From positions 17,434-81,433 of the forward strand of contig DASWKR010000028.1 of NCBI GenBank assembly GCA_036396535.1: DNA of 64,000 nucleotides, in the 5' to 3' direction. The notes under the pieces were generated by a model, which saw only the letters and a program-made list of their open reading frames with translations, was not told the origin of the DNA and did not search any database. Shown here in pieces: positions 1,741 to 61,574 of the stretch. Position 1 is the stretch's first letter, and every line of letters starts with the position of its first letter. Origin of the DNA: Acidimicrobiia bacterium (GTDB lineage: Bacteria > Actinomycetota > Acidimicrobiia > Spongiisociales > UBA5794). The translations under genes and the position numbers were made by a program.

Positions 1741-3246
1741 TCAGGCCTCGGGTCGCAGCAGCGGGAAGAGGATCACGTCCCGGATGTGGTGCTGATCGGT
1801 GAGCAGCATCACGAGCCGGTCGACGCCTATACCGAGCCCTCCGGTCGGCGGCATCCCATGCTCGAGGGCGAGGAGGTAGTCCTCGTCGACGGGGTGAGCC
1901 TCGGCGTCGCCCGCCCGGCGCAACATCGCCTGCGCTTCGAAGCGTCGGCGCTGGTCGAGGGGATCGTTCAGCTCCGAGAAGGCGTTGGCGTACTCGCTCC
2001 CGGCGATGAAGAGCTCCCATCTCTCGGTGAGGTTCGGGTCGTGGCGGTGCTCCCGGGCCAGAGGGGAGACCTCCTTCGGATGGTCCATCACGTACGTCGG
2101 CTGAACGAGGTCGTCGGCGACGAGCTCGTCGAAGAGAGCCTCGATGAGCTTGCCGTGCCCCCAATGCGCCTGCGGCTCGATACCGTGGCTCGTCGCCAGG
2201 CTGCGCACCTCGTCGAGGGGCGCCTCGAACGACACCGGGACGCCGACCCTCTCGGCCACCACGTCGGCCATGCGCACCCGTCGGTACGGCGGGGAGAGGT
2301 CGATCGCCTCGCCCTGGTACGTGATGGCGGTCGAGCCTGTCACGCTCTCGGCGATGGCCGCGAAGATCTGCTCGACCATCACGGCGACGTCGCCGTAATC
2401 GGCATACGCCTCGTACGACTCGAGCATCGTGAACTCCGGGTTGTGGGTCGAGTCGATCCCTTCGTTGCGGAAGATCCGGCCGATCTCGAACACCTTCTCG
2501 ATGCCCCCGACGATGAGGCGCTTCAGGTAGAGCTCGGTTGCTATCCGCAGGTATATGTCCATGTCGAGGGCGTTGTGGTGGGTGGCGAAAGGCTCGGCCA
2601 GCGCTCCGGTCGCCAGCGGCGTGAGCACCGGGGTCTCCACCTCGACGTAGCCGCGACCCTCGAACTCCCGGCGCAGCCCGGACACGATGGCTGCCCGCGC
2701 CAACGCCACATTGCGCGACTCCTCGTTGACGATGAGGTCCAGATAGCGCCTCCGGCTCCGCAGCTCGATGTCGGCGAGGCCGTGGTACTTGTCCGGCATG
2801 GGTCGCAAGCTCTTCTGGAGCAGCGTGAAGTCCTTCACCCTCACCGAGAGCTCGCCCTTCTTGGTCGTGACCACCTCGCCGCTCGCCCCCACCCAGTCAC
2901 CCAGGTCGAGCTCGGCGAAGGCCGGGAAATCGTCGAGCTCGGACTCGTCCGCCAGGAGCTGGATGCGACCCATGCCGTCCTGAAGGGTGGCGAAGACGAG
3001 CCTCCCGAACGACCGCAGCAGCACGAGGCGTCCCGCAACCGTGGCGGTGACCCCCGTCGCCTCCGCCGGGCCCAGCCCTGCGAACCGCTCGTGGAGCCCG
3101 GCGGCCGTCGCCGTCCGCTCGAAGCGGTACGGGTACGCCGACGCTGCCCGCTGGTGCTTCTCGAGCCTCCCGGCGGTGAGCGGATGATCGGCCAGCCCGA
3201 CCGTCTCGTCGACGACGCTGTCGTTCGTCTGTGGCGTGTCGCTCAT
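1741..3246 (-). CDS. lysS: lysine--tRNA ligase (class II)
   Basis: MSDTPQTNDS... with class II motifs (FRNEGIDSTHNPEFTMLE, GGLGIGVDRLVMLL). The real start is an internal ATG at 3244-3246 of the 782-aa ORF; the upstream in-frame extension is Arg-rich junk. A 4-nt ATGA overlap with coaX. Confidence 0.93.
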   Translation of the reverse strand: MSDTPQTNDSVVDETVGLADHPLTAGRLEKHQRAASAYPYRFERTATAAGLHERFAGLGPAEATGVTATVAGRLVLLRSFGRLVFATLQDGMGRIQLLADESELDDFPAFAELDLGDWVGASGEVVTTKKGELSVRVKDFTLLQKSLRPMPDKYHGLADIELRSRRRYLDLIVNEESRNVALARAAIVSGLRREFEGRGYVEVETPVLTPLATGALAEPFATHHNALDMDIYLRIATELYLKRLIVGGIEKVFEIGRIFRNEGIDSTHNPEFTMLESYEAYADYGDVAVMVEQIFAAIAESVTGSTAITYQGEAIDLSPPYRRVRMADVVAERVGVPVSFEAPLDEVRSLATSHGIEPQAHWGHGKLIEALFDELVADDLVQPTYVMDHPKEVSPLAREHRHDPNLTERWELFIAGSEYANAFSELNDPLDQRRRFEAQAMLRRAGDAEAHPVDEDYLLALEHGMPPTGGLGIGVDRLVMLLTDQHHIRDVILFPLLRPEA

Positions 3247-4016
3247 CCCTCGTCCACATTGCGCTCGTAGATCATTCGCAAGCCGTCGAGCGTGAGGAAC
3301 TCGTCGATGACCTCGACGGTGCGGCAATGGGGGACGATGGTAGATGCAAGCCCTCCGGTGGCGACTCTCGCCGGCTCTCCCCCCACCTCGGCGACGAGCC
3401 GCTCGAGGATCCCGTCGACGAGGCCGGCGTGCCCGTAGAGGGCTCCCGATTGGATCGCCTCCACGGTGCCTTTGCCGATGGCGGCGCGCGGGGGCACGAA
3501 TTCGACGTTGCGTAGCGCCGCAGCCCCCGAGATGAGCGCGTTGGTCGAGATCTCGAGCCCCGGGGCGATCGACCCGCCGAGGTACTCGCCTCCGGGGCCG
3601 ACGACGTCGAAGTTCGTCGACGTCCCGAAGTCGACGACGATCACCGGCGCCCCGTACCTCTCCCTGCCTGCCACGGCGTTGACCACTCTGTCGGCGCCGA
3701 CTTCCCGAGGGTTGTCGATCAGGATCGGCATTCCCGTCTTGGTGCCCGGCTCGACGACGACGACCGGACCGCTCGTCAGCTTCGATGCCACCATGCGGAA
3801 CGTGCCTGTGATCTTGGGGACGACGCTCGACACCGCCACGCCGGTGACGTCGGACGGGTCGAACCCCTCGAGCTCGAGGAGCCCGGTGAGCCAGAGGCGA
3901 AGCTCGTCCGCCGTCCTGTCGGCGATGGTCGTGAGCCGCCAGTGCCCGACCAGGCTGTCGACGTCGTAGAGGCCGAGAGCGGTCTGGGTGTTGCCGATGT
4001 CGAGCGCCAGGAGCAT
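3243..4016 (-). CDS. coaX: type III pantothenate kinase
   Basis: MLLALDIGNTQTALGLYD... Bvg accessory factor/CoaX family with ASKHA-fold motifs (DIGNT, VVDFGTSTNFD). Confidence 0.92.
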   Translation of the reverse strand: MLLALDIGNTQTALGLYDVDSLVGHWRLTTIADRTADELRLWLTGLLELEGFDPSDVTGVAVSSVVPKITGTFRMVASKLTSGPVVVVEPGTKTGMPILIDNPREVGADRVVNAVAGRERYGAPVIVVDFGTSTNFDVVGPGGEYLGGSIAPGLEISTNALISGAAALRNVEFVPPRAAIGKGTVEAIQSGALYGHAGLVDGILERLVAEVGGEPARVATGGLASTIVPHCRTVEVIDEFLTLDGLRMIYERNVDEG

Positions 4017-4912
4017 CAGGTGGTCTCCTCGAGAACGGACGGCCGGTCGAGCACGACCCCGCGATCGGCCGTGAAGCCGCCGCCGGCACGCTCGAGATGG
4101 ATGTTGTCGATGAGCGTCGTCGGGCCGACGTGAACCGCCGTGGCGAGAAAGGCGTCGCGATCGAGCGTTTCGATGCGGGAGCAGTCTGCGGTGGCGGCGA
4201 GGGTGACGTAGTCGAGGCGCAGCTCGGGCTCGGGGCCGATCTCCGACGCGACCAGGTCTTCCAGGACCGCCCCGCGACGCTCTCCCGATTCGGCTGCGTC
4301 GGCGGCAGCCATGAGGCCGCGGCCGATCGCCGACGCCGCTTCCCGCTGCGCAGTCGAGAGGAAGATGTTGCGCGACGACAGCGCGACCCCCCCGGCGTCG
4401 CGGATCGTCGGGCTGCCGACCACCTCGACGGGGAGCGAGAGGTCTGCGGCGAGACGCCTCACGATGGCGAGCTGCTGGGCGTCCTTCTTGCCGAACACGG
4501 CGACGTCCGGCTGGATGCCCGCCAGCAGCTTGGCGACGGCCATCGCCACCCCTGCGAAATGACCAGGGCGCCGTGAGCCCTCCATGGCGTCGGCCATCGA
4601 CCCGACGTCGATCGTGACGACGGGGCGCTCCGGGTACATGTCGTCGACGTCGGGGGCGAAGAGCACGTCGACGCCGGCGGCGGCGGCGAGCTCGACGTCA
4701 CGCTCGACGTCCCGTGGATAGTGGGCGAGGTCCTCGTTCGGGCCGAACTGAAGCGGGTTGACGAACAGGCTCATCACGACCCGGTCGGCGAGGGTTCCAG
4801 CCCGTTTCACGAGCGACAGGTGACCCTCGTGGAGGTAGCCCATCGTCGGGACGAGCCCGACGACGCCTCGGTTGCCGTCTCTGACTTCCCGAAAGCTCGT
4901 GACGACCTCCAT
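4016..4912 (-). CDS. panC: pantoate--beta-alanine ligase
   Basis: MEVVTSFREV...VPTMGYLHEGHLSLV (HIGH-type motif) ...FGKKDAQQL. The start is the internal ATG at residue 147 of the listed 444-aa ORF; the upstream part is Arg/Gly-rich antisense-like sequence. Confidence 0.9.
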   Translation of the reverse strand: MEVVTSFREVRDGNRGVVGLVPTMGYLHEGHLSLVKRAGTLADRVVMSLFVNPLQFGPNEDLAHYPRDVERDVELAAAAGVDVLFAPDVDDMYPERPVVTIDVGSMADAMEGSRRPGHFAGVAMAVAKLLAGIQPDVAVFGKKDAQQLAIVRRLAADLSLPVEVVGSPTIRDAGGVALSSRNIFLSTAQREAASAIGRGLMAAADAAESGERRGAVLEDLVASEIGPEPELRLDYVTLAATADCSRIETLDRDAFLATAVHVGPTTLIDNIHLERAGGGFTADRGVVLDRPSVLEETT

Positions 4913-5742
4913 CAGTCCGACTCCCAGAAGCGAAGCATCTCGTCGAACTGGTCTGATCGGCCGGTCAGCCTTGCGAGCTCCCTCACAACGACGACGAAGG
5001 CCGGCAGCCACGACGGGTCCGCGGCATGGATGGCGTCGAGTTGAGTGGCGACGGTCGCAACGTCGCCTCGGGCGACCGGACCCGTGAGCGCCGGCCGCGG
5101 GCCGATCTCGAAGGCGTTGCTCACAGCCGCCTCCACGAGCGGGCGGGCGGCCGCGAACGGCACACCCGCCCCGTCGAAGAGGTCTGAAGCCATCGCCAAC
5201 GCCGCCAGCGGGAAGTTGGCGGCTGCGGACGCAGCCGCGTGGTAGAGCGGCTTGCGGGCGTCCTCGAGGTCGAACGGGGCGGCGCCGAGCGAGACGGCGA
5301 AACCGTGCAGCTCGGAGCGGAGCGGCTCGACCGCGGTGACCGCGATCCACGCCCCCCCGAGGCGGGCCGCCCCCGCCTCAGGCGTCGGCAACGTCTGGAG
5401 CGGGTGGAACGAGCCGACCCGGAGCCCGGCGGCGGCAAGCGGGTCGAGAGCGGAGACCGGAGTGAGCCCAGAGACGTGCACTGCGGCCGCTACGGAGGAG
5501 GCGTGCTGCGCGATCTGCGCCGCCACGGCGGCGATCGCCTCGTCACGGGTGGCGATCAGAAGCAGGTCGCTCGGTGGGAGATCGTCGGCCGTGGTGAGGG
5601 CGGCGCCTCCCACGAGGGCTACGCCCGCCTCTGCGCCCGCCTGGTCGCGACCGACGACGGCGGTGATGTCGTGGCCCGCGGCGCCGGCCGCCAGCGTCAG
5701 CGAGAGCCCTGCCCGCCCTGGCCCGACGAGAACGATGCGCAT
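4912..5742 (-). CDS. Rossmann-fold NAD(P)-binding protein, DUF2520-type (ketopantoate-reductase-like), conserved upstream of panC in actinobacteria
   Basis: MRIVLVGPGRAGLSL GxGxxG motif. It holds the same operon position as the mycobacterial panC-upstream gene. The stop overlaps the panC start. Confidence 0.7.
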   Translation of the reverse strand: MRIVLVGPGRAGLSLTLAAGAAGHDITAVVGRDQAGAEAGVALVGGAALTTADDLPPSDLLLIATRDEAIAAVAAQIAQHASSVAAAVHVSGLTPVSALDPLAAAGLRVGSFHPLQTLPTPEAGAARLGGAWIAVTAVEPLRSELHGFAVSLGAAPFDLEDARKPLYHAAASAAANFPLAALAMASDLFDGAGVPFAAARPLVEAAVSNAFEIGPRPALTGPVARGDVATVATQLDAIHAADPSWLPAFVVVVRELARLTGRSDQFDEMLRFWESD

Positions 5743-5818: not shown

Positions 5819-6388
5819 TCAGAGGATCCAATCGATGATCCACCAGATCAAGAGGGACATGAGCAGCGTCGCCCCGGCGACCATGGGAGGAGCAACGAGC
5901 CATCCGGCGCGCCGCAGCCTGCGGACGTCCTGGTGGGAAACCGAGGGGAGGAGGCCGGCGGCCGGAGTTCCGTCGGGCAGGGCGGCGTCCGGCCACGCCT
6001 CCAGCAGCGGCTCGAGAACGAAACGGCGATCCGCCATCCTCGGGTGGGGGATGGTCAGGCCGGCGACGTCGACCTGGTCGCGGTCGTACAACAGCACGTC
6101 GAGATCGAGGGTCCTGGGCCCCCACCGTTCCCTGCGCTCCCTGCCCCTCGACCGCTCGATCTCCCTGAGCCGGGCCAGGAGATCGATCGGCGCCAGCTCC
6201 GTCTCGAGCACCACCACGGCGTTGAGGTACGGTCCCTGCTCGGGGCCACCGACCGGCGCCGTCTCGTAGATGCCGGACCTCGAGGCCACCCGGCCGATCG
6301 CACCGAGGGCCTTGAGCGCAGCTTCGAGGTGGGCTCGCCTGTCCCCGAGGTTGGAACCGAGCCCGATGGCGGCCCGGTGGAGGGTCAC
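5819..6388 (-). CDS. folK: 2-amino-4-hydroxy-6-hydroxymethyldihydropteridine pyrophosphokinase (HPPK) with a short C-terminal hydrophobic extension
   Basis: VTLHRAAIGLGSNLGDR...IYETAPVGGPEQGPYLNAVV...WGPRTLDLDVLLYD are HPPK signatures. The start is a GTG near 6386-6388; the upstream 160 aa of the listed 352-aa ORF are Arg-rich junk. The C-terminus WLVAPPMVAGATLLMSLLIWWIIDWIL is a TM-like tail. Confidence 0.8.
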   Translation of the reverse strand: MTLHRAAIGLGSNLGDRRAHLEAALKALGAIGRVASRSGIYETAPVGGPEQGPYLNAVVVLETELAPIDLLARLREIERSRGRERRERWGPRTLDLDVLLYDRDQVDVAGLTIPHPRMADRRFVLEPLLEAWPDAALPDGTPAAGLLPSVSHQDVRRLRRAGWLVAPPMVAGATLLMSLLIWWIIDWIL

Positions 6389-6432: not shown

Positions 6433-6906
6433 CTAGCTCCTCACCGGGATGAGCCGCCTGCCCTCGGGGCCGAGCGGCCGGCCCGTGATCTCCTGGATGA
6501 TGGTCGTGGCGATGATCGGGTCCTTGATGAGCCCGGCATGGACCAGGTAGCCGCCGAGGAGCCCGACGAGGGTGTCGTCGATGAGGTCGCGATGGACGAG
6601 CACCGAAGCTCCCTCCACGTCGAGCGCCTCGTCGAAGGCGTCGAACACCGCGGCGACGTCGCCTGGCTCGAGCTCTCCATCGATCGGCCTGTGAAGGAAA
6701 CGGAACCCTGCCGCCTCGTACGCAGCTTGGTTCTGGTTGCCGGGGAGGAAGGACAGCACGGTGTTGATGCCGCGACCGGACAGCCAGGCGATCTCCTCCT
6801 CTCGCCTGACCCTCCTGTGTTGGAACCCGTAGCCACCGATGCGCTCGGATACGGCCAAGCGCCCGGCGATGACCCACGTGAACCCTCGCGGCTCAAGACC
6901 AGCCAC
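6433..6906 (-). CDS. hypothetical protein with dual-specificity-phosphatase-like topology but lacking the CX5R active site, sitting in the folB position of the fol operon
   Basis: GINTVLSFLP...FLHRPIDGELEPGD...ASVLVHRDLIDDTLVG matches DSP-fold element order (general-acid loop PIDGE about 25 aa before the VLVH P-loop position), but the P-loop reads HRDLIDDT instead of HCxxGxxR. It lies 10 nt after folP and 45 nt before folK. Confidence 0.55.
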   Translation of the reverse strand: MAGLEPRGFTWVIAGRLAVSERIGGYGFQHRRVRREEEIAWLSGRGINTVLSFLPGNQNQAAYEAAGFRFLHRPIDGELEPGDVAAVFDAFDEALDVEGASVLVHRDLIDDTLVGLLGGYLVHAGLIKDPIIATTIIQEITGRPLGPEGRRLIPVRS

Positions 6907-6915
6907 GCCAGCCTC

Positions 6916-7815
6916 TCATGATTCGGGGACCCGTCGCCTGACCCTGGGAGGTTGCCGGCTCCCAGCCTCAGAAGAGTGCCTCACGATAGCGTCGGCGACG
7001 CGGGCGACCTGTAGCGTCCCTGCCACGTCGTGCACCCGAACGACGGCGACCCCCGAGGCGATGGCGAGTGTCGTGGTCGCCGCCGTTGCGGTGTCCCGCC
7101 CAGCGGCTTCGATACGGTGCCCTGCCGACTCGAGGATGGCGCCGAGGAACGCCTTCCTCGACGCCCCGAGGAGCACCGGGTAGCCCAGATCGACGAGGGA
7201 TGGGAGATGCCCGAGCAGCACCAGGTTGTGCTCCAGCGTCTTGCCGAACCCGATGCCGGGATCGAGGCAGATCTGGTCGCGGCCGACCCCGGCCGCCTCG
7301 GCGGCCGTGGCCCTCTCCACCAGGAACTCGCCGACCTCGGCGACTACGTCGCGGTACGCCGGCGCATCCTGCATCGTCCCCGGGGTGCCTTGCATGTGCA
7401 TGAGCACCACCGCGGCGCCGGCGGAGCGGCACACCTCGGCCATCCCGTCGGTGCCGAGAGCCGTCACGTCGTTCACGATCTGCGCCCCAGCCTCGAGCGC
7501 CGCCGCGGCGACCTCCGGTTTCCTGGTGTCCACCGAGACGATGACACCGCTCTCCGCCAGGGCGGCGACGACGGGCACGACCCTGGAGATCTCGTCGCCG
7601 ACCGACACGGGGTCGGCGTACGGCCTCGTCGACTCGCCGCCGACGTCGACGACGTCGGCACCCTCGTCCGCCAGACGCAACCCTTTGGCGACGGCGGCGT
7701 CGGTGTCGAAACTGAGCCCGCCATCGGAGAAGGAGTCGGGCGTCACGTTGAGGACGCCCATGACGAGGGTGTGGTCGCCCGTGTCGAGCGTCGTATCGCG
7801 GAGCCGCCACTCCAC
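6916..7815 (-). CDS. folP: dihydropteroate synthase
   Basis: VMGVLNVTPDSFSDGG...VVDVGGESTRP...DPGIGFGKT...GASRKAFLG are Pterin_bind/DHPS motifs. The start is ambiguous (GTG near 7815 or ATG 7761); the listed ORF start 7896 would overlap ftsH by 60 nt. Confidence 0.85.
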   Translation of the reverse strand: MEWRLRDTTLDTGDHTLVMGVLNVTPDSFSDGGLSFDTDAAVAKGLRLADEGADVVDVGGESTRPYADPVSVGDEISRVVPVVAALAESGVIVSVDTRKPEVAAAALEAGAQIVNDVTALGTDGMAEVCRSAGAAVVLMHMQGTPGTMQDAPAYRDVVAEVGEFLVERATAAEAAGVGRDQICLDPGIGFGKTLEHNLVLLGHLPSLVDLGYPVLLGASRKAFLGAILESAGHRIEAAGRDTATAATTTLAIASGVAVVRVHDVAGTLQVARVADAIVRHSSEAGSRQPPRVRRRVPES

Positions 7816-7834
7816 GGGGCGCACGCCGGGGCCG

Positions 7835-9754
7835 TCAGTTCTTGGACTCGTCGCCGGTACGGGCGGCGACCATCCCGGACTCGCGAACGCTGCCACCCTG
7901 CGGCATCTGGATCCGCAGCGAGCCGACTTCCGTGTGCTCCCACTTCGGTACGTCGTGGAGGATCTCGGTCAGCTCGGATGCGTCGACCGTCTCCTTGTCC
8001 ATGAGCACCTCGGCGAGCCGGTGAAGCGCCTGCTCGTGAGTGATGAGTATCTCCCGCGCCTCGTTGTGGGCTTGCGTGATGAGGAAGCGGATCTCCTCGT
8101 CGATGGCGGCGGCCACCTCGTCCGAGAGATCCGAAGAGCGCGAGTAGTCCCTGCCGAGGAAGACCTCCGCCTCGGGCCTGCCGTACTGGAGCGGACCGAG
8201 CTTCTCGCTCATGCCCCACTCCATGACCATCCGCCGGGCCAGGTTCGTCGCCTTCTCGATGTCGTTCGACGCACCCGTCGTCGGGTCGATGAAGATGATC
8301 TCCTCGGCGGTGCGGCCGCCGAGGAGCATCGCCAGCTGGTCGACCAGCTCGCTGCGCCGCATGTAGTTCTTGTCCTCCGTCGGGAGCGCCATCGTGTAGC
8401 CGCCGGACCGGCCCCTCGGGATGATGGTGACCTTGTGGATCGGGTCGGAGTGTGGCAGGGCGAACCCGACGACGGCGTGGCCGCCCTCGTGGTAGGCGGT
8501 GATCTTCTTCTCCTCGTCGGACATGACCCGGCTCTTGCGCTCCGGGCCGGCGATCACCCGCTCGATGGCCTCTTCCAGCTCTGACAGCGTGATCTCTTCC
8601 CGGTTGCGCCTCGCCGCCAGCAGCGCCGCCTCGTTGATGAGGTTGGCGAGGTCGGCACCCGTGAACCCGGGCGTCTGCCTGGCGAGGACCTTGATGTCGA
8701 CGTTCGAGGCGATCGGCTTCCCCTTGGCGTGGACCGTGAGGATCTCCTCGCGCCCCCGCAGGTCGGGCCGGTCGACAACGATCTGCCTGTCGAACCTCCC
8801 CGGCCGCAGCAGTGCCGGGTCGAGGATGTCCGGCCGGTTCGTGGCCGCGATGACGATGACGCCCGTCTTCACGTCGAACCCGTCCAGCTCGACCAGCAAC
8901 TGGTTGAGCGTCTGCTCACGCTCGTCGTGGCCTCCGCCGAGGCCGGCGCCGCGGTGCCGCCCGACGGCGTCGATCTCGTCTATGAAGACGATCGCCGGCG
9001 CATTCGTCTTGGCCTGCTCGAAGAGGTCACGGACCCTGCTGGCGCCGACTCCCACGAACATCTCGACGAAGTCCGAGCCGGAGATGGAGAAGAAGGGCAC
9101 GCCGGCTTCCCCGGAGACGGCCCTCGCCAACAGGGTCTTGCCGGTGCCCGGCGGGCCGAACAGGAGGACGCCTTTCGGGATCTTGGCGCCCATCGAGCGG
9201 AACTTGCCCGGACTGGTCAGGAACTCCTTGATCTCCTCGAGCTCCTCGACGGCCTCGTCCGAACCTGCGACGTCACTGAACGTCACCTTCGGCTGATCCT
9301 TCGAGACCTGCTTGGCCTTCGCCTTGCCGAACTGCATCACGCGGTTCCCGCCGCCCTGGAGCTGCATCATGATGAAGATGAAGATCCCGAACAGCAGGAT
9401 GTACGGGAACAGCGTCGTCAGGAACCACTGCAGGGCGGACGGGTTCTCGGGGTCCGGGTCGAGGTCGACGTCGGCGTCGAGGATCTCCTGCGTGAGCGTC
9501 CCCTCGAACTCGTTCGGGTACTGCACCTTGAACGTCGTCGAGCCCGAGACCGGCTCGACGAACTCGCCGACCAGCTCGTCAGACTTCGTCTTCATCGAGA
9601 CCGTGGCGACGTTGCCGTCCTCGAGCTCCCTCTCGAAGTCGTTGAGCGACAACTCCGACGGATCGACGGCGCCGGGCGTGAACAGGCTCACGAGCGCGAA
9701 AATGCCGAGCGCCACTACGAAGTAGACGAGCACGGTGCGTGCTGTACGGCTCAC
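7835..9754 (-). CDS. ftsH: ATP-dependent zinc metalloprotease FtsH
   Basis: Two N-terminal TM segments, AAA Walker [14 protein letters not shown], an SRH region, and the HEGGHA zinc-binding motif. Confidence 0.97.
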
Positions 9755-9940: not shown

Positions 9941-10462
9941 TCACTCCGGGTCGAACGTGCCGATGTACGGGAGGTTGCGGTACTTCTCGCCGTGGTCGAG
10001 ACCGTACCCGATCACGAACTCCGGGCCGATGTGGAACCCCTCGTACTTCACGTGGAGAGGGGGCCGCTCGATGCCGTCCTTGATGAGCAAGGCGGCCAGC
10101 TCGAGCGACGCCGGCTGGCGGACCCGCAGGTTCCTCATGAGGTAGTGGAGGGTGAGCCCCGAGTCGATGATGTCCTCGACGATCAGCACGTCTCTCCCGG
10201 AGATCTCGGTGTCGAGGTCCTTGAGGATCCTGACGACGCCCGACGTCTTCGTCGCCGAGCCGTACGAGGAGACGGCCATGAAGTCGAACTCAACCGGAAG
10301 CTCGATGTGGCGGGCCAGGTCGGCCATGACCATGAAGGCGCCTTTGAGGATGCCGACGATGAGCAGGTCCCGGCCGCGGTAGTCCTCGGTGATCGCCTTG
10401 CCCATCTCGCTGAGCTTGTCGCGGATCTGCTCCTCGGTGATGAGACGGTTGGCTGGGTTCAA
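9941..10462 (-). CDS. hpt: hypoxanthine-guanine phosphoribosyltransferase
   Basis: PRTase motif VLIVEDIIDSGLTL. The start is TTG (forward 'caa' at 10460-10462), forming a TTGA overlap with the tilS stop. Confidence 0.92.
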   Translation of the reverse strand: MNPANRLITEEQIRDKLSEMGKAITEDYRGRDLLIVGILKGAFMVMADLARHIELPVEFDFMAVSSYGSATKTSGVVRILKDLDTEISGRDVLIVEDIIDSGLTLHYLMRNLRVRQPASLELAALLIKDGIERPPLHVKYEGFHIGPEFVIGYGLDHGEKYRNLPYIGTFDPE

Positions 10463-14450: not shown

Positions 14451-14523
14451 GCCGGGGTAGCTCAGTCGGCAGAGCGACGCACTCGTAATGCGTAGGTCAC
14501 GGGTTCGATTCCCGTCTCCGGCT
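14451..14523 (+). tRNA. tRNA-Thr (anticodon CGT), CCA encoded at 14524-14526
   Basis: GCCGGGGTAGCTCAGTCGGCAGAGCGACGCACTCGTAATGCGTAGGTCACGGGTTCGATTCCCGTCTCCGGCTCCA folds into a cloverleaf. Acceptor is GCCGGGG/CTCCGGC (one G-U), anticodon stem ACGCA/TGCGT, loop CTCGTAA gives anticodon CGT, and the T-loop is TTCGATT. Confidence 0.93.
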
Positions 14524-15894: not shown

Positions 15895-16233
15895 TCAGTA
15901 GTTGAGCAGCGTCTTGATAGCGGTGCTGACCTGGCTGGCGACATCTGGTTCTATGGCGCCGAGGCGATGGACGAGACGGTTTCTGTTGATCGACCGGATC
16001 AGCTCGCATTGGATGTAGCTGGTGGCATCGAGACCGCTGTCGGCGCTGGCCTCGGTCTCGATATGCAGCGAGAGACCACGCCGGACCGTGGTCAGCGGGA
16101 CAACGATCACGAACGGAAACCCGGGGCCGAACGTGTCGGGCGGACCGAGGATCAATGCGGGACGGTGCGCGGCCGGCTCACCGGGATACGGCTCGCCGAA
16201 ATCGACGAGCCAGAGATCATCAACCGATGCCAT
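15895..16233 (-). CDS. mazF: MazF/PemK-family type II toxin (endoribonuclease)
   Basis: MASVDDLWLVDFGEPYPGEPAAHRPALIL...FVIVVPLTT...SYIQCELIRSINRNRL. The start is the internal ATG of the listed 136-aa ORF. There is a 14-nt overlap with the upstream antitoxin. Confidence 0.8.
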   Translation of the reverse strand: MASVDDLWLVDFGEPYPGEPAAHRPALILGPPDTFGPGFPFVIVVPLTTVRRGLSLHIETEASADSGLDATSYIQCELIRSINRNRLVHRLGAIEPDVASQVSTAIKTLLNY

Positions 16234-16456
16234 CGGGCACCGACGTGTCATCCGCCTCGGCGAGGTAGGTCTGCCATGCCCGGGGGTCCTCTCGGAGTTC
16301 GGCAATCTCTGCGGCTACCTGATGGGCGAAGCGTTGGCGTCGGAGCGCTTCGGCGGCGTCGCGAACTGTCTCGATGAGCGATGCCCCGGTCGCTTGGCTC
16401 AATGCGAGGAGGCGGGCGTGGGTGTCGGTGTCCACTCGGATCGTCGTAGTTCCCAT
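16220..16456 (-). CDS. ribbon-helix-helix (CopG-like) antitoxin partner of the MazF toxin
   Basis: MGTTTIRVDTDTHARLLALSQATGASLIETVRDAAEAL has an RHH N-terminal beta-strand plus helices. It lies upstream of and overlaps the toxin gene. Confidence 0.75.
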   Translation of the reverse strand: MGTTTIRVDTDTHARLLALSQATGASLIETVRDAAEALRRQRFAHQVAAEIAELREDPRAWQTYLAEADDTSVPDGIG

Positions 16457-28273: not shown

Positions 28274-29350
28274 TTATCCCTGCTCCGTCGAAGTGAGGAG
28301 CCCGGCTTTGAGGCGCTCGGCGACGAGCTCCCAGCGGAAGCGGGACAACACCAGCTCCCTGCCGCGTCCGCCGAACTCACGGGCAGCCGGCATGAGCAGC
28401 TCGATCGCCTCCGCGATGGCGGCAGGTGATGTGGCGATGTAGCCCGACTCGCCGGGGATCAACGTCTCGGGCGCCCCGCCGGAGTCGCCCGCGATCACGG
28501 GAAGCCCCGATGCCGCCGCCTCCAGGAACACCAGCCCGAGCCCTTCGATCTCGAGCCCGCCCCACCGCGACCGGCACGGCATGGCGAAGACGTCCATCTG
28601 GCGGTACAGGCCCGGGAGGTCTTCCCACGGCACTGCCACCTCGAACCTGACGGGCACGGCTTCGTGGACCGCCAACTTGCGGAGCCGCTGCTCCGTCCTG
28701 CCCTTCCCCACCAGGAGCAGGTCGACCTCGACGCCACGCCGGTGCAGCAGCGCCACGGCCCTGATGAGGCGGTCCTGGCCCTTGCGGGGCACGAAACGAC
28801 TGACGCAGCCGACGACGAAGGACCCGCCGTCCTTCGTCCCGGGGTGGAACGCCTCATGATCCACCCCGGCGCCCAGGTACACCACCTCCCGTCCGGTGAG
28901 CGCTCCCACGGCGCGGCGGGTGTACTCCGACACGGCGAACACCACGTCGGCCTGCCTGAGCCATCCGGCGAGGGCCTGCCTGGCGCCGGGCACCGCCGCC
29001 GGGATCGTCACCTCGGCGCCGTGACAGATGACGCCGAATGGGACATGGAGCCGGCGGCGGAGCTCTGCACCGAGCCTCGGAAGCGGGTGAGGGGCGCCGA
29101 AGAGGATCGCATCCGGGCGGAAAGGGGCCGCCTGCTCGACGATCCATCGGGCGAGGCTCTTCGTCGGCCACATGAAACGCCGCCGATTCCGCACCACTGC
29201 GGCTTCGCCGCGTCTCGTGCCGGCTGCTGCGTCGTCGGCTGGCGCGACGACCAGCAACTCACCGTCGAAGGCATCGAGGGCGTTGCCGAGATACTGCTGG
29301 ATGCCGCCGGGCTTCGGCGGGTAGTCGTTCGTGATGACGAGGAGCCGCAT
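28274..29350 (-). CDS. GT4-family glycosyltransferase (PimB/MgtA-like mannosyltransferase)
   Basis: MRLLVITNDYPPKPGGIQQYL (compare mycobacterial LLVTNDFPPRRGGIQSYL) plus a C-terminal GT4 EX7E-region (FLEAAASGLPVIAGDSGGAPE). The start is an internal ATG (29348-29350) overlapping the upstream gene stop by ATGA. Confidence 0.85.
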   Translation of the reverse strand: MRLLVITNDYPPKPGGIQQYLGNALDAFDGELLVVAPADDAAAGTRRGEAAVVRNRRRFMWPTKSLARWIVEQAAPFRPDAILFGAPHPLPRLGAELRRRLHVPFGVICHGAEVTIPAAVPGARQALAGWLRQADVVFAVSEYTRRAVGALTGREVVYLGAGVDHEAFHPGTKDGGSFVVGCVSRFVPRKGQDRLIRAVALLHRRGVEVDLLLVGKGRTEQRLRKLAVHEAVPVRFEVAVPWEDLPGLYRQMDVFAMPCRSRWGGLEIEGLGLVFLEAAASGLPVIAGDSGGAPETLIPGESGYIATSPAAIAEAIELLMPAAREFGGRGRELVLSRFRWELVAERLKAGLLTSTEQG

Positions 29351-30693
29351 CAGGCGACGAAGTGGGGGGCGAGGTTCCAGTCGACGAGCCGCCGCCCGTT
29401 GGCCGAGTACACGACGCGCGAGAAGGCGGTGTTGTCCATCGAGGCGAGCCGGTGGCGGTTGGCGGGACCCATGCCGAGGAGGCCGGACGCGAATGCCCGC
29501 AGCGCCCCGCCGTGCGAGACGATGCCGACCGTCTGACCCCGGTGATTGGCGGCGATCTCGTCGATGGCGGTCGTGACCCGCTGGCGGACGCCCGCAAACG
29601 CCTCGCCGGATCCGCCGCGGATGACGTGCTCGTCTCCTGCTCGCAGCAGAGCCAGACCCTCCGGGTCGCGCTCGCCGATCTCGTCGACCGTCAGGCCCTC
29701 CCACGAGCCGAACCCGATCTCCTTGAGGTCCTCGACCTGGACCGGTTGCATGCTGAGGGAGTCGGCGACCGCCTCTGCCGTGTGGACGGCGCGCGCCAGG
29801 GGCGACGAGTAGATCGCATCCAGCCGAGGCAGGTGGGCGCCCACCGATCGGATCTGCCGACTGCCGCGCTCCGTGAGCTCGCCGGGCTGGTGCCCCTGCC
29901 ACCTGCCCTCGATGTTGGCGACGGTCTCGCCGTGCCTGATCAGGATCAAGTGGGTCTCCTGATCGGAAGGCATCGGAACGTGGTCCGGGAGCAGGTGGGT
30001 CGAGTCGTTGTACCGCACGAGCCGGATGCCATGTGGGTCGGGCGTGAGGGTGACGACCGCCGTGTTGAACGGCAGCGCCAACGGGGCAGGCCGTGACGTG
30101 CCGAGCAGCTGCGAGGCGAGAGTGAGGATTGCGAGGCCGTGACTCACGACCAGAGCCCGCCCCGACTCGCCGACGCGCCGGACGAGGTCGCCGAGGGCGT
30201 TGCCCAGCCTGACCGCGGTGTCCGTGAGGCGTTCGCCGCCCCCGAGCTCGACGTCGTCGCCTGCCAGCAGCCTGCGGATACGCTCCGGCTCCCGTTCAGA
30301 GATCTGCTCGAACGTGAGCCCCTCCCACGAGCCGATGTTCGGCTCTCTCCAGCGAGGATCGACCTCAGGAACGAGTCCCATCGCCGCCGCGGTCGCCTCG
30401 GCTCGGCCGAGATCGGACGAGGCGACGATGTCGAAGCGCTCGGAGGCGAATCGCAGCCGGAGCCGCTCGAGTTGCACTTCACCCTCCGGCGAGAACGGCG
30501 CGTTCGTCGATCCCTGCCACACCCTGGTGCGATTGGCCGTGGTCTCGGCGTGTCTCACGAGCACGATCTCAGGCGGCAAGGGGCTCTCCGGGAGGGCGGG
30601 ATGCGGAACATACCACGGGCTTTCCGATGCCCTTCTCCCCTTTCTGGGTATCACGGGCCGGCGGGCCGCATCGTCTGGCGGAAGGAGGCTCAT
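29350..30693 (-). CDS. tandem-domain histidine phosphatase (two phosphoglycerate-mutase-family domains in one polypeptide)
   Basis: Two RHG cores, LVRHAETTANR and LIRHGETVANIEGR, each followed by its own catalytic His (SHG) region. The start is uncertain: ATG 30693 or a GTG near 30558-30564 giving MLVRHAET. Confidence 0.8.
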   Translation of the reverse strand: MSLLPPDDAARRPVIPRKGRRASESPWYVPHPALPESPLPPEIVLVRHAETTANRTRVWQGSTNAPFSPEGEVQLERLRLRFASERFDIVASSDLGRAEATAAAMGLVPEVDPRWREPNIGSWEGLTFEQISEREPERIRRLLAGDDVELGGGERLTDTAVRLGNALGDLVRRVGESGRALVVSHGLAILTLASQLLGTSRPAPLALPFNTAVVTLTPDPHGIRLVRYNDSTHLLPDHVPMPSDQETHLILIRHGETVANIEGRWQGHQPGELTERGSRQIRSVGAHLPRLDAIYSSPLARAVHTAEAVADSLSMQPVQVEDLKEIGFGSWEGLTVDEIGERDPEGLALLRAGDEHVIRGGSGEAFAGVRQRVTTAIDEIAANHRGQTVGIVSHGGALRAFASGLLGMGPANRHRLASMDNTAFSRVVYSANGRRLVDWNLAPHFVA

Positions 30694-60687: not shown

Positions 60688-61092
60688 ATGAGAACCGGCC
60701 GACGCGTGCTGCTCGTCCTGTGCGCTGCATTCTCGGTCGCCGCAGGGCTCATCCTCGCGGTAGGCACGGCGGTCATCTCGTCGCTGACGGGCGATGCCGC
60801 GGTGAGCGACACGGCGGGCATCGTCGCCGCGGGTGCCGCCGGAGCCGTCGGCGTGCTCGCTGCCGTCCTGTGGCGCAGCAGGGTCACCGAGCGGACCGTG
60901 ACCATCGCCCAGCTGCGCGCCACCATATTCGTCGCACTGGCGATCGCCGAGGTGGGGATGCTGCTCGGGCTCGTCTGGGGGTTCTTCTCGCAGTCGCCGG
61001 CGCCGCTGTGGACGGGTGCGGCGTTCTACGCGCTGTCGCTCGTCCTCGTCGCCACCGGCATCGCCAGGGCGGACGTGGCGCAGCTGCCATGA
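60688..61092 (+). CDS. hypothetical 4-TM membrane protein
   Basis: Hydrophobic helices throughout. It has an ATGA overlap with the downstream gene. Confidence 0.55.
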   Translation: MRTGRRVLLVLCAAFSVAAGLILAVGTAVISSLTGDAAVSDTAGIVAAGAAGAVGVLAAVLWRSRVTERTVTIAQLRATIFVALAIAEVGMLLGLVWGFFSQSPAPLWTGAAFYALSLVLVATGIARADVAQLP

Positions 61093-61574
61093 ACGATCTG
61101 CACGAGGGGCTGGCGCACCTGGCTTTCCTCGTCGGCACGTGGCGCGGGTCCGGTGTCGGGGTGTACCCGACGATCGAGACGTTCGAGTACCGAGAGGAGG
61201 TCGTCATCGGCCACATCGGCAAGCCGTTCCTCACGTACGCGCAACGCACCACCCGGGCCGGCTCCCACCCCGAGGCAGGCGTCCGACTCCACTCCGAGAC
61301 GGGGTACATCCGTCCCGCCGGCGCCACCGGGGTCGAGTTGGTCGTCGCTCAACCGACGGGCATCGTCGAGATCCACGAAGGGCGGCTGTCCGGGACGACG
61401 CTCGAGATCGAGCCGCGGCTCGTGGCGACCACGGCGACGGCCGTGGCCGTCTCACGCGTCGAACGGCGAGTGGTCGTCTCGGACGACGAGATGCGCTACG
61501 AGCTGTGGATGGAGGCCGTCGGCCAACCGCACCAGATCCACCTGGAAGCGACGCTCACCAGACGGGATTCCTGA
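61089..61574 (+). CDS. nitrobindin-like / THAP4-type heme-binding beta-barrel protein (DUF1794)
   Basis: The MNDLHEGLAHLAFLVGTWRGSGVG... GTWRG motif is characteristic of nitrobindin/FABP-like DUF1794. It is about 160 aa. Confidence 0.7.
   Translation: MNDLHEGLAHLAFLVGTWRGSGVGVYPTIETFEYREEVVIGHIGKPFLTYAQRTTRAGSHPEAGVRLHSETGYIRPAGATGVELVVAQPTGIVEIHEGRLSGTTLEIEPRLVATTATAVAVSRVERRVVVSDDEMRYELWMEAVGQPHQIHLEATLTRRDS

Follow-up and report, generated by a model that had tools for sequence, protein, structure and literature searches.

The gene that lies between folP and folK in the 64,000-nucleotide stretch of Acidimicrobiia DNA analyzed here (the window), which we call X, is very probably an additional, fixed cistron in the pterin-branch operon, a member of an unannotated family found across the class Acidimicrobiia that derives from VHZ/DUSP23-like dual-specificity phosphatases (DSPs), has lost the catalytic Cys of that fold, and has not replaced the dihydroneopterin aldolase FolB; these statements are made jointly and with good confidence. 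The removal of the three phosphates of dihydroneopterin triphosphate (DHNTP) constitutes steps 2 and 3 of folate synthesis. For most bacteria, the gene for DHNTP dephosphorylation is still unassigned (PMC1971073). X, which has its origin in a phosphatase fold, is about as conserved as ftsH, and is fixed class-wide between folP or folE and folB, is a candidate for this missing step. The analysis corrects the appealing inference that X replaces FolB and flags a large clade of Acidimicrobiia whose operon keeps folP and folK and does not keep folE or folB; X itself stands as an uncharacterized fifth gene of the folate operon, highly conserved throughout the class, at the place of the long-missing step.

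Gene X and the window operon

The genes on the minus strand of the window are arranged in the order hpt-ftsH-folP-X-folK-DUF2520 gene-panC-coaX-lysS (Table 1). The longest folP ORF runs over the 3′ end of ftsH (7835-7896), and the real start of folP may be located more downstream. X had been described as lying 10 nt after folP and 45 nt before folK; the tight packing between the two genes was upheld, whereas the figures were not, the measured gaps being 9 nt from the folP stop codon to X and 44 nt from the end of X to the folK GTG. The folP stop codon (6918-6916) is followed directly by a Shine-Dalgarno-like GAGG, which is positioned 5 nt ahead of the GTG start codon of X. A scan for promoters and terminators detected no terminator or promoter-like site inside the operon, and an Rfam scan of the window detected no riboswitch. 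Neither folB nor folE was found within the 64-kb window, and there is no room for panD in the cluster, where panC and coaX adjoin at position 4016, in agreement with the claim that these three genes are absent from it.

X is a genuine gene under purifying selection and not a chance ORF. Its third-position GC content of 0.87 matches that of the adjacent genes, and its dN/dS in comparison with close relatives is 0.13-0.21. Database searches returned 1527 homologs of X, every one of them unnamed and without a Pfam domain. Mean identity to the window X in the closest clade is 67%, and the corresponding values at the same loci are 57% for folP, 58% for folK, 61% for lysS, and 72% for ftsH.

Some further features of the window and its flanking genes were recorded. 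The sole Rfam match is one tRNA on the plus strand (14451-14523), near a gene for a MazF/PemK-type toxin (15895-16305; PF02452, 3e-17). A 447-aa protein (29350-30693) contains two matched stretches of the His_Phos_1 (histidine-phosphatase) type with an E value of 1e-95, and the ORF at 60720-61574 encodes a THAP4-like heme-binding β-barrel domain (PF08768, 1e-40). The product of the DUF2520 gene also carries a Rossmann-like N terminus, and the gene occupies the same folK-panC position in most of the loci compared below; in distant lineages (L082-L084), nadC sits between panC and coaX.

Table 1. Features of the window operon and of gene X, with the coordinates of ORF fusions at related loci (locus handle before the colon)
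Feature	Position	Strand	Remarks
hpt	9941-10462	minus	
ftsH	7835-9754	minus	
folP (dihydropteroate synthase)	6916-7896	minus	TIGR01496 1e-92, PF00809 1e-83
Shine-Dalgarno-like site for X (GAGG)	6912-6915	minus	read from sequence
Gene X	6433-6906	minus	157 aa, Cys-less, VHZ/DUSP23-like DSP fold
X start codon GTG	6906-6904	minus	
X stop codon TAG	6435-6433	minus	
Gly/Arg-rich insertion, β2-α1 loop, residues 21-38 (ERIGGYGFQHRRVRREEE)	6793-6846	minus	top conservation in the family
General-acid-loop position, residues 73-80 (RPIDGELE)	6667-6690	minus	alignments A1 and A2; residue frequencies
P-loop remnant, residues 102-115 (VLVHRDLIDDTLVG)	6562-6603	minus	hhalign to VHZ
C-terminal helix-loop, residues 133-150 (ATTIIQEITGRPLGPEGR)	6457-6510	minus	α5-α6 loop position of DSPs
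folK (HPPK)	5819-6388	minus	GTG start; TIGR01498 4e-42, PF01288 1e-40
DUF2520 gene	4912-5742	minus	between folK and panC
coaX	3243-4016	minus	
FolK-methyltransferase fusions	L025:6846-7799; L022:6565-7518; L081:7523-8482; L086:5357-6307; L087:5366-6349; L088:5377-6333		
Clp_N-like + FolB ORFs	L011:3232-4137; L038:6483-7346; L042:6483-7343; L044:6365-7411; L053:6523-7371		Clp_N assigned by eye

Fold, catalytic residues, and conserved loops of X

The original prediction recognized a DSP fold in X and held that the protein is not a T-fold aldolase, and HMM searches together with structure prediction confirmed both points. The AlphaFold model of X is confident (pLDDT 89) and has the α/β architecture of the DSP superfamily, with a central β-sheet and, between the last strand and the next helix, a loop at the P-loop position. 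A profile of distant X-family members matches PDB 25xa with an E value of 1.3e-13; this entry is a "dual specificity protein phosphatase family protein" that keeps an intact HCRAGYGRTG. Alignment of the X-family profile with human VHZ (PDB 4erc type) gave an hhalign probability of 94%. No family in Pfam or NCBIfam covers X, and neither a FolB, a Nudix, nor an HD signature was found in it with these collections; the only matches were sub-threshold ones to DSP-type models. DUF442/BLH_phosphatase (PF04273; PDB 3gxg) gave weak sequence and structure matches only, at 14.6 bits in comparison with a cut-off of 26.1, and the TIGR01244 score was 15.7 bits in comparison with a cut-off of 85.9. On sequence and predicted fold we class X as a Cys-less, pseudophosphatase-like DSP derivative, and as neither a phosphatase, a FolB, a Nudix FolQ, nor a DUF442 protein. 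It combines three properties of the STYX-like pseudophosphatase concept, namely the fold, a substituted Cys, and purifying selection.

Replacement of both the nucleophilic Cys and the Arg, as read earlier from the letters of the window, was borne out by hhalign to VHZ, which places R106 at Cys95 and T112 at Arg101, with His105 on the conserved His. The P-loop of the window protein reads H105-R-D-L-I-D-D-T112, with acidic residues at positions 107 and 111, and does not contain the HCX5R(S/T) signature. Cys at position 106 was found in none of 150 family representatives (50%-identity clusters), among which this position is free to vary (R, Q, G, H, A, S, and others), and Arg112 is retained in ~40% of representatives. 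The segment PIDGE had been proposed to be the general-acid loop, an assignment that did not survive alignment: the general acid of VHZ, Asp65, aligns with Ile75 and not with Asp76, position 75 is hydrophobic family-wide (L/F/I/V), and conservation within the family is lowest around residues 73-80, which have no conserved Asp, Asp76 itself being unconserved. Since the Cys, the Arg, and the general-acid Asp are all replaced in the window X, the whole catalytic triad is missing, and we infer that X would be unable to act as a cysteine phosphatase.

Arginines at positions 106 and 112 (codons 6589-6591 and 6571-6573 in the window) are nearly mutually exclusive among representatives, with R106 only in 22, R112 only in 32, both in 1, and neither in 26. 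The idea of a relocated arginine is only suggestive because of the 26 representatives that have neither residue.

The Gly/Arg-rich insertion of the β2-α1 loop has the pattern E21-R22-x-G24-G25...H30-R31-x-x-R34-R35-x-E37-E38, in which E21, G24, G25, R31, R34, R35, E37, and E38 are conserved in 96-100% of family representatives and R22 and H30 in ~90%. The insertion corresponds to a gap of 6-10 residues in both PDB 25xa and VHZ, and the pLDDT of this segment is lower, at 65-79. The family consensus of the acidic P-loop is H105-x-[ED]107-x-hydrophobic-[GD]-[DE]111, and further conserved residues are N59, Y63, R143, and R150. Within the C-terminal helix-loop, A133, R143, G146, and R150 are 81-91% conserved among family representatives and invariant or nearly so in 81 locus sequences. 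In DSPs the α5-α6 loop lines the pocket, and from the alignment and the structures of other DSPs we take most of these conserved residues of X to be located in loops around the catalytic pocket. Because ~15 very strongly conserved polar residues fall in these presumed pocket loops, conservation suggests that the old pocket is still the functional site, with a changed chemistry.

Gene order in relatives and the folB question

One scan of GTDB species genomes identified at least 538 relatives of X, and the best 80 loci, of ~12 kb each, were mapped with the window proteins and a FolB query. The scan used a subset of the diverse alignment A2 as query, the full alignment being too variable, and the FolB query was the M. 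tuberculosis FolB, with Pfam subsequently verifying the identity of FolB in locus L025. Nearly all of the best 80 loci are labeled as Acidimicrobiia or as an unclassified Actinomycetota/Actinomycetes bin. A few are labeled Kiloniellales, Acidobacteriota, or Bifidobacterium, and these labels are taken to reflect mis-binned contigs.

Among the best 80 of the at least 538 relatives, X is found directly upstream of folB-folK in 47 loci, 41 of which have folP immediately before X, and folE is directly upstream in 43 of the 80. The arrangement folP-X-folK without folB, as in the window, is found in 19 of these best 80 loci, and the contig ends after X in 2. In the remaining 12, the fetched flanks contain no fol gene (L010, L062, and an Ilumatobacteraceae clade): in the Ilumatobacteraceae, X follows tilS with no fol genes nearby, and in L010 it lies between ftsH and the DUF2520 gene without folP or folK. 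Homologs without fol linkage, which the original prediction had named, together with a canonical folB elsewhere in the genome, as counterevidence, do exist at these 12 loci, as judged from the fetched flanks, and most of the 80 loci are fol-linked. Six loci have the order folE-X-folB-folK, with folP not in between. In L025 the order is folE-folP-X-folB-folK, the stop codon of X overlaps the folB start, and Pfam confirms FolE, FolB (3e-32), and HPPK. Family members at 27-31% identity are still directly upstream of folB-folK or folK, the genes ftsH, folE, and folP having moved away; L084 has tilS-hpt-X-folB-folK, and L082 and L083 have tilS-X-folK-panC.

For a sampling independent of X, we took the FolB domain of L011 as a query and looked up seven matches. 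All seven loci have the order tilS-hpt-ftsH-folE-folP-(ORF of ~160 aa without a Pfam match)-folB-folK, and several have overlaps of 4-13 nt. The HMM confirmed the intervening ORF as X in L085-L089 (E 1e-55 to 1e-59); in L090 and L091, the ORF at the position of X is known as a 158- to 159-aa ORF without a Pfam match. The pterin-branch genes of Acidimicrobiia lie on the same strand with short or overlapping junctions and in conserved order, as expected of an operon, and are flanked by genes of the block tilS-hpt-ftsH...panC-coaX-lysS, which is syntenic and functionally mixed in these genomes. The ancestral order is likely folE-folP-X-folB-folK. In most Acidimicrobiia sampled, X is co-transcribed, and probably also coupled in translation, with the pterin-branch genes.

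Apparent fusions of X were rejected as such: folP-X-FolB (P0241), X-FolB-HPPK (P0262), X-FolB (P0163), TilS-X (P0142), and FolE-X (P0305) have scrambled interdomain sequence, and the source of P0305 is a 3x-coverage long-read contig in which other genes are split too. We treated them as frameshift artifacts, informative on gene order only. At several loci the ORF after X is longer and contains a ClpC-type N-terminal-like repeat twice, reading MFERFTD.ARRV..LAQ.EAR.L.H..IGTEH.LLGL, and then a complete FolB domain (Table 1). An ftsH with an intein in the AAA domain (Pfam Intein_splicing, with a faint LAGLIDADG match) was found at L085:1-2619.

The FolK proteins of the class have features of their own. 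The window FolK has a hydrophobic C-terminal tail of ~40 residues (...AGWLVAPPMVAGATLLMSLLIWWIIDWIL; 5819-5940), a similar tail is found in L002, and the FolK (HPPK) of many Acidimicrobiia is a fusion protein that includes a PEMT/ICMT-like multi-pass membrane methyltransferase domain. Together, the fusions and hydrophobic tails suggest a membrane-anchored HPPK. A single 389-aa ORF in L004 (6471-7640) begins as FolK and has an end resembling uracil phosphoribosyltransferase (...GYIVPGLGDAGDRIFGTK); it may represent a fusion or a missed stop codon.

The placement of X in a folB slot of the operon, as originally predicted, was contradicted by the relatives, most of which have X between folP (or folE) and a canonical, Pfam-recognized folB gene that often overlaps it. 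In a neighbor-joining tree of X, built without bootstrap, the window belongs to one large clade of folB-less operons, and such operons occur separately at three further, smaller places (L012 with L065, L022, and L054). All of the deepest branches of the tree have folB, and the window arrangement is therefore read as a secondary loss of folB, together with folE, from an operon around a pre-existing X. In the window clade and at loci L001-L009, L012, and L065, ftsH leads straight into folP, folE and folB are gone from the operon, and folK and folP are intact, an arrangement that reflects either the loss or the relocation of the early pterin steps.

That X replaces dihydroneopterin aldolase in the folB-less lineages, including that of the window, is highly improbable. 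A replacement would be in keeping with the dropping out of folB at several separate places of the X tree while the X-folK adjacency persists, with the failure to find FolB in the 64-kb window, and with the fact that, among the top 120 FolB matches, none is tied to a contig that has a window-clade X gene. However, canonical FolB adjoins X in most relatives, an arrangement that is likely ancestral, and every conserved motif is common to X proteins with and without an adjacent folB, so that nothing suggests that X took over the FolB reaction. The fold is moreover DSP and not T-fold, with no FolB Pfam signal, and the absence of folE from the same operons suggests that a whole module was relocated or lost, and not that a single enzyme was replaced. 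As a general function of the family, FolB replacement is ruled out, as X coexists with canonical FolB in most relatives.

Possible functions and comparison with known systems

We tentatively favor a function in which X binds a phosphorylated pterin or a partner protein at the FolB, FolK, or FolP steps, acting non-hydrolytically or at least independently of Cys. In this model, the phosphates of DHNTP or of hydroxymethyl-dihydropterin pyrophosphate would be bound by the Arg-rich loop, with the pterin or a metal ion held by the His and the acidic residues; another possibility is that X docks onto FolB, FolK, or FolP. Handling of the labile FolK product would fit three observations, namely the persistent adjacency of X and folK, the putative membrane anchoring of FolK in the class, and the persistence of X in operons that folE and folB have left. 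A binding or accessory role is less easily reconciled with the 12 loci (L010, L062, and the Ilumatobacteraceae clade) that carry X without fol genes in the fetched flanks, or with an acidic P-loop that has no obvious capacity for phosphate binding. Enzymes are also commoner than binders among the small proteins of biosynthetic operons, and the synteny of the whole tilS...lysS block makes adjacency alone weak evidence for a shared function.

The same synteny, embracing genes of mixed function, would be expected if X had no connection with folate, acting for instance as a pseudophosphatase-type regulator or adaptor whose gene entered a highly stable housekeeping cluster on a single occasion, a possibility that we regard as somewhat unlikely. 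The position of X after tilS in the Ilumatobacteraceae and between ftsH and the DUF2520 gene in L010, where fol genes are absent, would be accounted for, as would the loss of catalytic residues, which is typical of protein-binding pseudoenzymes. Yet X stays directly upstream of folB or folK down to 27-31% identity despite changes in the genes on its other side, its reading frame overlaps with those of folP and folB, and it was present at all seven FolB loci that were picked independently of X.

It is unlikely that X is a Cys-independent phosphohydrolase, probably metal-dependent through His105, Asp/Glu107, and Asp111, that acts on dihydroneopterin triphosphate or monophosphate. The Arg-rich loop would then hold the triphosphate, and X would stand in, as a non-orthologous enzyme, for FolQ/NudB or the "non-specific phosphatase" supplying FolB, a version that we likewise consider improbable. 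Gene order argues for hydrolysis: X-folB-folK corresponds to pathway steps 2, 3, and 4, folP is not between folE and X-folB-folK in six loci, and there are no other candidate hydrolase genes between X and folB, any extra sequence there resembling by eye a Clp_N-like extension of FolB, while the gene calls at the seven FolB-anchored loci contain nothing further between the two. A DHNTP pyrophosphatase gene was reported to be missing from most bacterial genomes (PMC1971073), the fold derives from hydrolases of phosphate esters, and numerous conserved charged residues would lie around the old pocket. On the other side, the three catalytic residues of the fold are all absent and the nucleophile position is variable; X is also retained, and is even more conserved, in the window clade from which folE and folB have left the operon, and it is kept at loci without a nearby fol gene. 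We know of no precedent for a Cys-less DSP-fold hydrolase.

Literature searches found no paper tying a DSP-like protein to folB or folK or dealing with an actinobacterial DHNTP pyrophosphatase, and neither the X family nor any folate-operon gene of DSP-like type was found described. A doubtful but more far-reaching proposal is that X founds a class of DSP-fold proteins with a rebuilt, Cys-less site, consisting of a His, two acidic residues, and an Arg-rich lid, which would perform or chaperone DHNTP/DHNMP dephosphorylation in Acidimicrobiia or serve as a channel for the labile hydroxymethyl-dihydropterin pyrophosphate between FolP and a FolK anchored in the membrane. A non-enzymatic X would, as far as we know, be one of the rare pseudophosphatases of bacteria with a link to a biosynthetic operon, and it would exemplify the change from a cationic to an acidic P-loop.

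In comparison with the VHZ/DUSP23-type atypical DSPs (PDB 4erc) and PDB 25xa, X has neither the nucleophilic Cys nor the Asp that serves as general acid, and in this lineage the Arg of the P-loop is gone too; it has instead the 6-10-residue insertion GG..HR..RR.EE, an acidic P-loop, and a location in a folate operon. DUF442/BLH_phosphatase is, like X, a bacterial DSP-fold family, but X is Cys-less and scores below its cut-off. STYX-type pseudophosphatases and the PRL-CNNM system use the DSP fold for binding and not for hydrolysis, the Cys being substituted in STYX and dispensable in PRL-CNNM. Both belong to eukaryotes, retain the cationic P-loop and its Arg, and have phosphoproteins or a CBS domain as binding partners. 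X, which may be comparable to them, is bacterial, and its P-loop has turned acidic. PRL works as a pseudophosphatase on CNNM (PMC8728433).

Within folate synthesis, the Nudix protein FolQ/NudB is a DHNTP pyrophosphatase, encoded by ylgG in the folKEPQC cluster of L. lactis, and HDIG proteins are candidates termed "FolQ2" (PMC1971073). Like FolQ, X is a small folate-operon protein located where the dephosphorylation step is needed; unlike FolQ and FolQ2, it has an unrelated fold with no Nudix or HD signature. The window X adjoins folK as mycobacterial folB does, whereas in contrast to FolB (PF02152, T-fold) it has a different fold and no profile match, and it coexists with canonical FolB in most relatives.
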